Positions 34,168 to 36,712 of a stretch of 55,230 nt of DNA are shown one piece after another (positions within the stretch are counted from its first letter, which is position 1; each line of letters begins with the position of its first letter). Under the pieces are notes generated by a model. That model was not told where the DNA came from. It searched no databases and saw only the letters and a list, made by a program, of their open reading frames with translations. The translations under genes were made by a program, and so were the position numbers. The DNA is taken from the IMG/VR virus record IMGVR_UViG_3300031555_001876; one strand, 5' to 3'. The stretch comes from a virus.

Positions 34168-34262
34168 ATAACCCATCTATAAAGATTTTTAAAAATAAAG
34201 AATGGATTGACTTTCATAAAAATATATGTTATAATATAAAAAAATATAAAGGAGAATGTAAA

Positions 34263-35135
34263 ATGATTAAGTTACTTTCTTATTAGGGTGAGCCTACCTT
34301 AATTGAAGTTAATCGTTATCCTAATAATGAAGCCTATTTCAAAATGCCTGCTGACCACGAAGAAAAAGAATATTATGGTATTGAATGGCATTATGAAAGT
34401 GATAGCGAAATGTTCATTATTATGTGCCTGATTGGGGAATTACCCAGTTTGAAGCATATGCTGTATATGCCTTATTTACCTAATTCAAGAACTGACGCAA
34501 AGAAATATGAAGATGATGTTGATACTTTAAGATGGTTCTGCAAGTGGGTTAATAGCCTTGGTTTTGAAAATGTAAAAATGATTGATACTCATAGTGTAGT
34601 AGGCGCTTCTTTAATTGACAATAGTTATGCTGTTGCCAATGAAGCATATGCTGTTATGGCTATTGATGAAATTGTTTTAAGTTTAATTGGAAACGCTTCT
34701 ATGGATGAGGCTCCTGAATGGGCATTAGAAAATATCGTTCTTTTCTATCCTAATTATAGTGCTTATAAGAGATATGGCGAGAGTTTAAATCTGCGCGATT
34801 TTAAACATACTTATGGATACACAAAGAGAAATTGGGAAACTGGCGCATTGTCTAATTTGATGATTGCCGACCCCGAATTAATTGATGGCAAAATGGTTGT
34901 TATCATTGATGATATTTGCTCTTATGGTGGCACTTTTATTACAAGTGCTGATAGTCTTATCGCCGCAGGTGCTAAAAATGTATATTTATATGTTTCTCAC
35001 TGCGAAGATACTATTTGGGAAGGCAAACTCCCTACAAGTGGTTTAATTGACCATATGTATACTACTAATTCTCTAATTAAAGAAAATCAAAAGGAAGATT
35101 GGTTGACAATTTTGGAAGCCAATGTTAACGATTAA
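34263..35135 (+). CDS. Prs-like (PRPP synthetase family) phosphoribosyltransferase-fold protein. It is a paralogue of the gene at 35782..36621.
   Basis: Motif MPYLPNSRTD matches the Prs flag region, and VVIIDDICSYGGTF is a type I PRTase motif. ATG 34263 follows AAGGAG. An in-frame TAG at 34284-34286 gives an N-terminal extension that aligns with its paralogue, so TAG is read as a sense codon here. Confidence 0.6.
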
Positions 35136-35140
35136 AAAAT

Positions 35141-35169
35141 AAAGGGTGCTGGCAACAGCACCCTTTTTT
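35141..35169 (+). terminator. Rho-independent terminator.
   Basis: Hairpin aaagggtgctggcaacagcaccctttttt. Confidence 0.65.
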
Positions 35170-35196
35170 GATTTTTATAAAAAAATATATTATAAT
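35168..35196 (+). promoter_or_regulatory. One copy of the repeated consensus promoter TTGATTTTTATAAAAAAATATATTATAATATATAT.
   Basis: ttgatt at 35168-35173 and tataat at 35191-35196 with 17-nt spacing. More than 25 near-identical copies occur in the window, for example near 23020, 25515, 26445, 27493, 28300, 30265, 31562, 34205, 36650, 38330, 38515, 38700, 39375, 40230, 43125, 43345, 43440, 44862, 49750 and 49845. Confidence 0.7.
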
Positions 35197-35228
35197 ATAT
35201 ATATAAAATATGAAAGGAAATGATTTAT

Positions 35229-35801
35229 ATGAAGTTTCTTGTAATTGTTGATGTACAGCACGATTTTGTTGATGGTTCTCTCGGCAGTGATGAAGCATTT
35301 GATGCTTATATGCGCATTCGTGACTATCTGCAGAATGTAGACGAAAATTATCGTGTACTGTTTACGCAGGATACTCATAATGCAAATTACCTGGATACTT
35401 TTGAGGGCAAGCGTTTGCCGGTAAAGCATTGCATTAAGGGTGAGCACGGTTGGAAGATTATGAGCGACTTGCGCGCTGAATTCGATAACGCACCTTATGT
35501 AATTCATAAGGATACTTTTGGTTCTTTTAAGTTGCCCATTGAAATGCAGGAAATTCTGAATTTCAATGAAGAAGTAGATGAAATTGAAATTTGCGGTCTT
35601 TGTACTGATATTTGCGTTATCTCTAATGCACTGATTCTACGCGCCGCATTCCCTAGCGCAAAGATTACCTGCTTTGCCAATCTTTGCGCTGGCACTACCC
35701 CGATTAATCACGTGAACGCATTGGAAGTTATGAAGTCTTGTCAGATTGATGTAGCATACATCGCAAAGGTTGGTGAATATAATGATTCGTCTAATCAGTA
35801 A
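35229..35801 (+). CDS. pncA: Nicotinamidase / isochorismatase-family hydrolase (PncA-like).
   Basis: N-terminal motif LVIVDVQHDF, catalytic Cys motif GLCTDICV, and a conserved Lys region. Confidence 0.65.
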   Translation: MKFLVIVDVQHDFVDGSLGSDEAFDAYMRIRDYLQNVDENYRVLFTQDTHNANYLDTFEGKRLPVKHCIKGEHGWKIMSDLRAEFDNAPYVIHKDTFGSFKLPIEMQEILNFNEEVDEIEICGLCTDICVISNALILRAAFPSAKITCFANLCAGTTPINHVNALEVMKSCQIDVAYIAKVGEYNDSSNQ

Positions 35802-36621
35802 TAATTTTCAAGATACTTATACTGTAGATATTGATAAATTTTCTGCAGGTGAAACAAAATTTCTTCTTCCTTATGATGGGAAATATTATAACGGCATTCA
35901 TTGGCATTATGAAAATGATGGTGAAATGTTTGCCATTATGTGTTTGGTAAATGAAATGCCTGCGCTAAAAGAATATTTGTTTATGCCTTATTTCCCGCAC
36001 GCAAGAATGGATAGGACTAAAAATAAAAATGATGTATTTACATTAAAGTGGTTCTGTAAGTGGCTGAATAGTTTGAATTTTAATCTTATTGAAGTGTGGG
36101 ACCCGCACAGCGATGTATGCGTTGCACTTTTGGATAATGTACACATAAATCCTATTGACCGTAAAATTACAAAGGCTATTAGATATATTAGTGCAGATGC
36201 GGAAGATAAAAATGATTATATTGATAATGAATTTGCGCTCTTTTATCCTGACCAAGGTGCTGCAAAGCGTTACAGCGGCAATGGTAAAGTAGGTAATTAT
36301 TTTTATAGTTGTACTTATGGAAATAAGACAAGAGAGTGGGGCACCAATCAAATCACTGGCTTAACTATTGCTAACCCAGAAGTAGTTAAGAATAAGGATG
36401 TCTTGATTGTAGACGACATTTGCTCTTACGGTGGTACCTTCTACAGAGCAGCGACCGCACTTAAAGAAGCAGGCGCGCGCAAAGTATATCTCTATATTAC
36501 TCATTGCGAAAACGCAATTTGGAAAGGCAAGTTGCCTGATAGTGGTTTAATTGAAAAAGTTTTTACAACTAATTCTATTTACCATTACCTTGGTGAAAGT
36601 AATTGGCTTGTTGAGGTCTAA
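35782..36621 (+). CDS. Prs-like PRTase-fold protein. It is a paralogue of the gene at 34263..35135.
   Basis: Motifs MPYFPHARMD and LIVDDICSYGGTF. ATG 35782 follows AAGGTTGG. Confidence 0.6.
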   Translation: MIRLISNNFQDTYTVDIDKFSAGETKFLLPYDGKYYNGIHWHYENDGEMFAIMCLVNEMPALKEYLFMPYFPHARMDRTKNKNDVFTLKWFCKWLNSLNFNLIEVWDPHSDVCVALLDNVHINPIDRKITKAIRYISADAEDKNDYIDNEFALFYPDQGAAKRYSGNGKVGNYFYSCTYGNKTREWGTNQITGLTIANPEVVKNKDVLIVDDICSYGGTFYRAATALKEAGARKVYLYITHCENAIWKGKLPDSGLIEKVFTTNSIYHYLGESNWLVEV

Positions 36622-36712
36622 ATATTAAGGGTGTTAGCAATAACACCCTTTTTTGATTTTTTATAAAAATTATGATATAATATTTATAGAAAATGAAAGG
36701 TGATGATATTAA

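Follow-up and report, generated by a model that had tools for sequence, protein, structure and literature searches.

A candidate NAD+-salvage cassette with a PncA-type nicotinamidase and two Adps-type paralogues, one lacking catalytic residues, in a TAG-recoded phage

The analysed stretch of phage DNA (one strand of the IMG/VR virus record IMGVR_UViG_3300031555_001876, 55,230 nt at full length, hereafter the window) carries three plus-strand genes between positions 34200 and 36650: a paralogue of the Adps/Prs fold, A (34263..35135, 290 codons and amino acids), a PncA-type nicotinamidase (35229..35801, 190 aa) and a second paralogue, B (35782..36621, 279 aa), an Adps-type pyrophosphokinase by family placement. 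With a probability of roughly 0.55, we read them as an accessory NAD+-salvage cassette that stems from a nicotinate-type version of NAD+ reconstitution pathway 1 (NARP1) and persists in reduced form with the front end only; its role is probably to counter NAD+ depletion. The reading is founded on gene structure, family placement, conservation and loss of residues, operon comparisons and TAG read-through. The three open reading frames (ORFs) lie where a preliminary description of this DNA had placed them, and the interpretation offered there is supported in part: the nicotinate-type route stands as the best reading. Identical DNA (100%) was found on contigs of eight metagenome samples, so the locus is not an assembly artefact.

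In the proposed scheme, the nicotinamide set free by NAD+ cleavage, whether by NADase defences or by other enzymes, would be deamidated to nicotinate by PncA, and B would pyrophosphorylate ADP-ribose (ADPR) with ATP to ADP-ribose pyrophosphate (ADPR-PP). In most relatives, a Namat-like transferase with Ala or Ser in place of the amide-binding Asp would then join nicotinate and ADPR-PP into nicotinate adenine dinucleotide (NaAD), which NadE would amidate to NAD+. In the window's clade the nicotinate-type Namat and NadE would have to be supplied in trans, either from the host or from a region of the phage genome outside the sampled DNA, because these steps are not encoded within reach; the host is a possible source, a chromosomal Adps-PncA-Namat-NadE operon being present in many Clostridia. 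Paralogue A, a lineage-specific duplicate of B that has lost the residues for ATP binding and pyrophosphoryl transfer, would most likely serve as a non-catalytic subunit or ligand-binding partner, and its synthesis would depend on TAG suppression by the phage, codon 8 of the gene being TAG. All enzymatic activities in this scheme, the nicotinate specificity, the complementation in trans and the role of A are predictions.

Family placement of the Adps paralogues

Both Prs-like proteins belong with the phage Adps of NARP1 and not with the cellular phosphoribosyl pyrophosphate (PRPP) synthetase Prs, a likeness anticipated by the preliminary description and borne out by sequence identities, tree position and model scores. 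Pfam finds Pribosyltran in A and B along with weak matches to Pribosyl_synth / Pribosyltran_N, and both match PHROG 619, 'ribose-phosphate pyrophosphokinase' (A, 4e-46; B, 1e-62). The two proteins share 43% identity along their whole length. SPbetaL1 Adps is 38–40% identical to B and 32% to A, and E. coli Prs is 19–21% identical to the two. Sequence matches of B to Prs structures and to the NCBIfam Prs models cover most of the protein, and all Prs equivalog models remain far below cutoff for both proteins (TIGR01251: 56 bits for A, 78 bits for B, cutoff 113). In a neighbour-joining tree, a long branch carries A and its strain variant as the sister of the B-type clade (84/100), and all of them are distant from Prs. 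No close relatives of A were found beyond that variant.

The motifs quoted in the preliminary description are all present: MPYLPNSRTD and IIDDICSYGGT in A, MPYFPHARMD and VDDICSYGGT in B, VDVQHDF and GLCTDICV in the protein between them. The PY..R.D pattern had been labelled a 'flag region', but it marks the start of the ATP-binding/regulatory flexible loop; the flag region of B. subtilis Prs spans residues ~30–44.

The placement of B bears on another account of the locus, in which the cassette boosts classical salvage: B would be a true PRPP synthetase, PncA would feed nicotinate to the Preiss-Handler enzymes PncB, NadD and NadE of the host, and ADPR would not be involved. No Namat lies nearby, B keeps all residues common to Prs and Adps, and related phages carry PncA-PncB-NadD-NadE operons, so that PncA homologues do work with PRPP-dependent chemistry. 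However, B falls inside the Adps clade and is 40% identical to SPbetaL1 Adps, which used ADPR and ATP and gave no product in a PRPP-synthetase test (Osterman et al. 2024, bioRxiv 10.1101/2024.02.11.579819). Its ribose-phosphate loop is of the Adps type, DDICSYGGT, as opposed to the Prs-type DDMIDTGGT, in keeping with its score below the TIGR01251 cutoff. A mere booster of host salvage is an unlikely explanation on this evidence, and B is predicted to be an active enzyme of the Adps type.

Catalytic residues and status of paralogue A

Four positions, R78 (in the 'R.DR' motif), D157 and G159 (in the PP-loop 'PDxGA') and K182 (in 'KxRxW'), are invariant in the closest relatives (119/119) and in six standard Adps. 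A has Ala, Asn, Ser and Thr there, respectively; B retains all four, together with all other conserved catalytic and ribose-phosphate loop residues, and every catalytic residue is likewise kept in B-type orthologues of 69–94% identity. K182 corresponds to K162 of SPbetaL1 Adps, and K162A is an inactivating mutant of its active site (Osterman et al. 2024). Two Prs-like paralogues do flank PncA, as the preliminary description had it, but they are not equivalent: residues for pyrophosphoryl transfer (PP-loop Asp and Gly, loop Arg, catalytic Lys) are missing in A and present in B. For A, this is the very loss that the preliminary description had named as counting against its reading.

A keeps H109, R75, D77, R184 and the ribose-phosphate loop DDICSYGGTF. 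Its structural model is confident (predicted local distance difference test score, pLDDT, 86.5) and matches the PRPP synthetase fold over the full length (template modelling score, TM, 0.65–0.73). Comparison with the variant from another sample gives a ratio of nonsynonymous to synonymous substitution (dN/dS) of 0.09, that is, purifying selection. Given this ratio, a strong promoter, a Shine-Dalgarno sequence, a terminator and the confident fold, A is a functional gene and not junk. Since four invariant residues are lost while the Prs fold and purifying selection are retained, A is probably a pseudoenzyme or a neofunctionalised paralogue, not a pseudogene. PAP39/41 (PDB 2C4K, one of the Prs-family structures matched) and the non-catalytic Prs subunits of yeast offer a parallel, as they too are full-length Prs-fold paralogues devoid of catalytic residues beside a catalytic paralogue; A differs in having arisen independently within the phage Adps clade, and an A-B hetero-oligomer is only putative.

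Were A neofunctionalised, it might act as a Namat replacement resembling a type I phosphoribosyltransferase (PRTase), joining nicotinate to ADPR-PP, or as a sponge for ADPR-derived immune signals. The Prs fold consists of two type I PRTase-like domains, and A has lost only ATP-side residues, with its ribose-phosphate/PRPP-type loop and the four further residues named above intact; it combines a long branch with purifying selection, and Thoeris signals are known targets of sponge proteins. Relatives that have PncA and B but not A also lack Namat, however, so A is no general solution; no base-binding features were identified in it, and we know of no precedent for such transferase chemistry in the Prs family. 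Both versions of this idea appear very unlikely.

The nicotinamidase and the operons of its relatives

The middle gene, taken for PncA-like in the preliminary description, indeed encodes a credible, predicted nicotinamidase. It matches Pfam PF00857 (Isochorismatase, 2.5e-20), and in the PDB it is best matched by the nicotinamidases of P. horikoshii and M. tuberculosis (1ILW and 3PL1). None of 84 phage homologues deviates in the catalytic triad (D8/K94/C129) or in the metal ligands (D48/H50/H67); the fourth metal ligand of the M. tuberculosis enzyme, H57, is replaced in this family by an equally invariant Tyr, and the score for the NCBIfam PncA equivalog, 17 bits, stays below the cutoff of 174.

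The genomic company of this family was compared across 80 viral contigs and phage Phass-1 with PncA homologues and across 76 bacterial loci with Adps homologues. The viral PncA homologues, 44–52% identical, head two types of operon: PncA-Adps-Namat-(140 aa)-NadE at ~55 viral loci and in Phass-1, and PncA-PncB-NadD-NadE at ~8 viral loci. In bacterial genomes, Adps, PncA and Namat occur together at 59/76 loci, 39 of which also have NadE, and many Clostridium chromosomes show the gene order Adps-PncA-Namat-NadE. PncA thus accompanies Adps and Namat, usually with NadE as well, at over 110 related loci of phages and Clostridia, contrary to the earlier suggestion of an arrangement with PncA instead of Namat.

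The window resembles the Phass-1-type (OQ749652) gut-phage and Clostridium operons in its proteins (PncA 41–52% and Adps ~35–50% identical) and shares with the gut-phage operons the order PncA, then Adps; both kinds of operon, however, contain a Namat with D215A/S and usually NadE, whereas the window has neither and carries paralogue A in addition. The phage Preiss-Handler clusters are likewise headed by a nicotinamidase of the window's PncA family, but where they have PncB and NadD the window has Adps-type genes, and it lacks NadE. In gut jumbo phages, pncA/pncB/nadD/nadE clusters have been noted at the level of annotation (Microbiome 2024, PMC11662467).

In the structure of SPbetaL1 Namat, D215 hydrogen-bonds the amide of nicotinamide, and we take it to be the equivalent of the specificity-determining Asp of human NAMPT. 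Residues 215 and 242 are Asp (6/6) and Ala in six standard NARP1 Namats, and again Asp and Ala at the two bacterial loci that have neither PncA nor NadE. In PncA-linked homologues, both viral (57/57, including Phass-1) and bacterial (58/58), residue 215 is Ala or Ser and residue 242 is Ser; the equivalents in a phage PncB (L013) are Ser and Asn. The remaining pocket and most adenine-clamp residues are invariant among the Namat homologues. As D215 is always Ala or Ser in PncA-linked loci, these transferases are predicted to convert ADPR-PP and nicotinate to NaAD on the way to NAD+. NadE acts on NaAD and PncA makes nicotinate, so the simplest reading would be that Adps and Namat replace PncB and NadD. 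No description of a nicotinate/NaAD branch was found in the NARP1, NARP3 and Namat papers or in other searchable literature, where the PncA-Adps-Namat-NadE operons likewise have generic annotation only and no pathway description.

The 140-aa gene between Namat and NadE (L001, 11103–11522, with equivalents at ~30 loci) has no Pfam match and contains a DxDxT-like motif, FDFDDTVF, which suggests a small phosphatase of the HAD type. NARP3, which consists of PnuC and NadR, was considered as a related system and set aside as unrelated.

A putative pathway with no back end within reach

NARP1 itself comprises Adps and Namat and has extended forms, NARP1-AP with the phosphatase Adpp and a form associated with RyDEP (Osterman et al. 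2024). The window's cassette resembles it in three respects: A and B sit in the Prs-derived Adps clade to which SPbetaL1 Adps belongs, neither the essential Lys nor any conserved motif is missing from B, and the whole forms a small accessory unit of early type within a large phage. It differs in having no Namat within 10 genes or ~66 kb, in the translational coupling of PncA to Adps and in the extra, catalytically dead copy of Adps; PncA and NadE are not among the accessory genes of NARP1 described so far.

Several points weigh against a NARP1-derived salvage cassette. Homologues of Namat or PncB elsewhere in the genome, a matter raised by the preliminary description, were absent from the 55-kb window and its ~11 kb of flanks (~66 kb in total), as were NadD and NadE; the best tblastn hit of SPbetaL1 and Phass-1 Namat against the window had an E value of about 0.9. 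The same four enzymes are missing within ±10 kb in the related loci L099, L102, L103 and L201, the last on a contig binned with Acutalibacteraceae. As encoded, the pathway is incomplete and a dead end. Since 97% of the genes in the Adps clade have a Namat at most 10 genes away (Osterman et al. 2024), the window's clade is an exception that needs explanation. At a further locus, L157, a heavily degenerate Adps stands beside an intact PncA, which suggests that, with Namat lost, Adps activity may no longer be required. The nicotinate specificity of D215A/S Namats is inferred from comparative genomics and from the role known for the corresponding NAMPT Asp, and the neighbour-joining tree has a single cellular Prs as its outgroup. 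The whole phage genome was not recovered, no match being found in INPHARED phage genomes, IMG/VR or a metagenome scan; walking outward from the window ends extended the sequence by 10 kb of structural genes to the left and by 1.4 kb to the right, and the absence of Namat and NadE consequently holds only for the ~66 kb sampled.

The syntenic loci L099, L102/L103 and L201 share the backbone NTase-(Metallophos-124 aa)-PncA-Adps, followed by genes for 544 aa, 138 aa, 239 aa, an M28 peptidase and 484 aa, and the position of PncA before B is conserved in the orthologues. Where these relatives have the Metallophos and 124-aa genes, the window has a GIY-YIG endonuclease, a 68-aa ORF and A; L099 is without A. 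At L157 (5202–5939), hardly any of the catalytic and ribose-phosphate motifs survive in the Adps-like gene that overlaps the intact PncA. Judged by these sequences, PncA is the constant element, and its Adps partner varies from intact to apparently dead.

The Metallophos phosphoesterase and the 124-aa gene lie directly 5′ of PncA (L099, 7360–8519; L102, 7511–8536; L201), and the phosphoesterase might process ADPR derivatives, like the NARP1 accessory enzymes Adpp and RyDEP. L157 represents a second, independent degeneration of Adps in a Namat-less context. In L102, a 241-aa gene between PncA and Adps was considered as an extra Adps copy and rejected, being a multi-copy endonuclease-like gene.

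This variation could also be read as decay: after the loss of Namat and NadE only PncA would have stayed useful, and the Adps copies would be eroding, A already and B not yet. The badly degenerate Adps beside an intact PncA in L157, the lost catalytic residues of A and its absence from L099 agree with such a relic. On the other side stand the strong purifying selection on A, its own expression signals and confident fold, and the B-type orthologues that keep every catalytic residue, so that we hold a relic to be quite unlikely. Still less would we favour a cassette that rebuilds no NAD+ and merely removes nicotinamide and/or ADPR, for example to disturb the base-exchange or signalling chemistry of TIR/SIR2 defences. 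The encoded pathway does have no NAD+-forming step, but homologues of both genes are overwhelmingly found in operons ending with NadE, and the literature searched offered no precedent in its support; this is the least probable of the accounts considered.

Within the preferred reading of a reduced salvage cassette, it is tempting to go one step further and propose a 'deamidated NARP1' front end run in trans with a host back end, with A as a TAG-gated, non-catalytic subunit or sponge that binds ADPR or ADPR-PP, the route as such being widespread in gut phages and Clostridia. We put this fuller version forward tentatively, as a possibility that falls well short of an even chance.

TAG as a sense codon

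Gene A contains an in-frame TAG at codon 8 (34284–34286), which the preliminary description missed, although the ORF that it called from 34263 is real. The gene is intact only because this gut-type phage reads TAG as sense, a recoding of the code 15 type that extends throughout the window. In the minus-strand block 1226–7285, long ORFs appear only with TAG read-through, at 3–7 TAGs each; with TAG translated, the terminase match runs across five TAGs and the portal match across six. The Pfam match of the GIY-YIG endonuclease spans a TAG at codon 85. Residues on both sides of the TAG in gene A align with the N-terminus of B, and the strain variant from another sample keeps this TAG despite 20 synonymous-site differences. 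PncA and B are free of TAG.

None of the 14 tRNAs of the window, which is only part of the genome, is a tRNA-Sup(CTA), but Phass-1, the nearest annotated relative, carries one and is classed in the 'code 15 clade'. By analogy with this relative, the amino acid inserted at TAG would be Gln. A Gln at position 8 of the strain variant, P0001, was considered as proof of this and withdrawn: the DNA of P0001 also reads TAG, and its Q comes from code-15 gene calling. Synthesis of A and of the homing endonuclease would, by inference, be possible only once TAG suppression is active.

The terminase, portal and other structural genes contain 3–7 in-frame TAGs each. PHROGs 15503 and 24618, both of 'unknown function', align with the N-terminal and the C-terminal part of the terminase and may be fragments of TAG-split terminases. 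At locus L091, ~10 kb to the left of the window, structural genes match the SPbeta-type families YonB, YonD_N and YomU tube; these matches hint that a TAG-recoded phage here carries a virion module like that of SPbeta.

Gene layout and transcription

All signals of the cassette lie on the plus strand. Gene A is preceded by a near-consensus promoter at 34207..34235 (TTGACT, a 17-nt spacer and TGnTATAAT; 11/12 consensus matches), which belongs to a promoter element repeated in three copies, and by a perfect Shine-Dalgarno sequence, AAGGAG, at 34249–34254, 8 nt 5′ of the ATG at 34263. An intrinsic terminator with an 11-bp stem and a T run follows at 35141..35166. The next unit begins with a related copy of the promoter (35168..35196) and contains PncA, whose best supported start is the ATG at 35229 (chosen by the gene callers and consistent with homologues; an alternative ATG lies at 35220), and B, which overlaps the 3′ end of PncA by 20 nt; it is closed by a terminator hairpin at 36627..36650. 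A further related promoter copy at 36653–36681 precedes the gene following B. Terminator and promoter together form a 75-nt repeat, whose copies after A and after B are 81% identical. The 5′ untranslated regions in the cassette measure ~25–30 nt, and no riboswitch or other known RNA was found in it. From this layout of promoters and terminators, A is a stand-alone cassette, and PncA and B form a translationally coupled bicistron.

Repeated modules at 34207–34238, 35135–35209, 36620–36694, 38330–38375 and 38523–38568, 72–88% identical, flank successive early-type genes. These terminator-promoter modules yield a string of separately transcribed cassettes of one or two genes.

Neighbouring genes and other features

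Upstream of the cassette, the GIY-YIG homing endonuclease of the preliminary description is confirmed at 33240..33959 (plus strand, 239 aa, three in-frame TAGs, Pfam GIY-YIG). Downstream, the Cys-rich, Zn-ribbon paralogues are also there, at 36700–38334 and 41292–42746 (24–26% identical), but their co-occurrence pattern shows that they are not partners of the cassette. The first, of 544 aa, was considered as a substitute for Namat and rejected: it has no Pfam or PHROG match and no PDB fold match (model pLDDT 89.6, TM about 0.1 or less to PDB folds), and it follows a co-occurrence pattern of its own, being accompanied in 79 viral loci by the 138-aa, 239-aa, M28-peptidase and 484-aa genes and by PncA/Adps only once.

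Together these genes constitute a conserved five-gene module (544 aa, 138 aa, 239 aa, an M28-type peptidase with Zn ribbons, 484 aa) at 36700–42746 in the window and at loci L105–L183, on 79 viral contigs. The 544-aa family comprises more than 770 clusters, without a Pfam domain and with invariant S-x-H-P-x-D...W-x-S-C and CxxC motifs. A Y-RNA-like (YrlA) element at 38376–38500 (plus strand) scores 36.7 bits (E 2e-5), below the Rfam threshold, and is not called by ARAGORN. It is a permuted tRNA-like domain, with T-arm, acceptor 3′ strand and GCCA, a 4-nt loop, acceptor 5′ strand, D-arm and an outer closing stem, and sits between two 45-nt copies of the promoter repeat (38330–38375 and 38523–38568). 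The 14 tRNA genes are clustered at 43257–50549 and include the unusual anticodons Ser(ACT) and Ile(TAT).

Implications

NAD+ depletion is a central anti-phage strategy of bacteria, and the known counter-pathways NARP1, NARP2 and NARP3 all proceed via amidated intermediates. The comparison of loci suggests a fourth logic, in which NAD+ is rebuilt from ADP-ribose via nicotinate and NaAD. Its core would be a new predicted reaction, ADPR-PP + nicotinate -> NaAD, with a recognisable signature, a D215A/S Namat with linked PncA and NadE, at over 110 loci in phages and Clostridia. What the window contributes is a minimal form, PncA-Adps, unable to complete the pathway on its own, which implies metabolic complementation between host and phage, and, in A, the first candidate Adps pseudoenzyme. 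If true, the nicotinate branch would refine the way in which anti-defence annotation tools score 'NARP1'.

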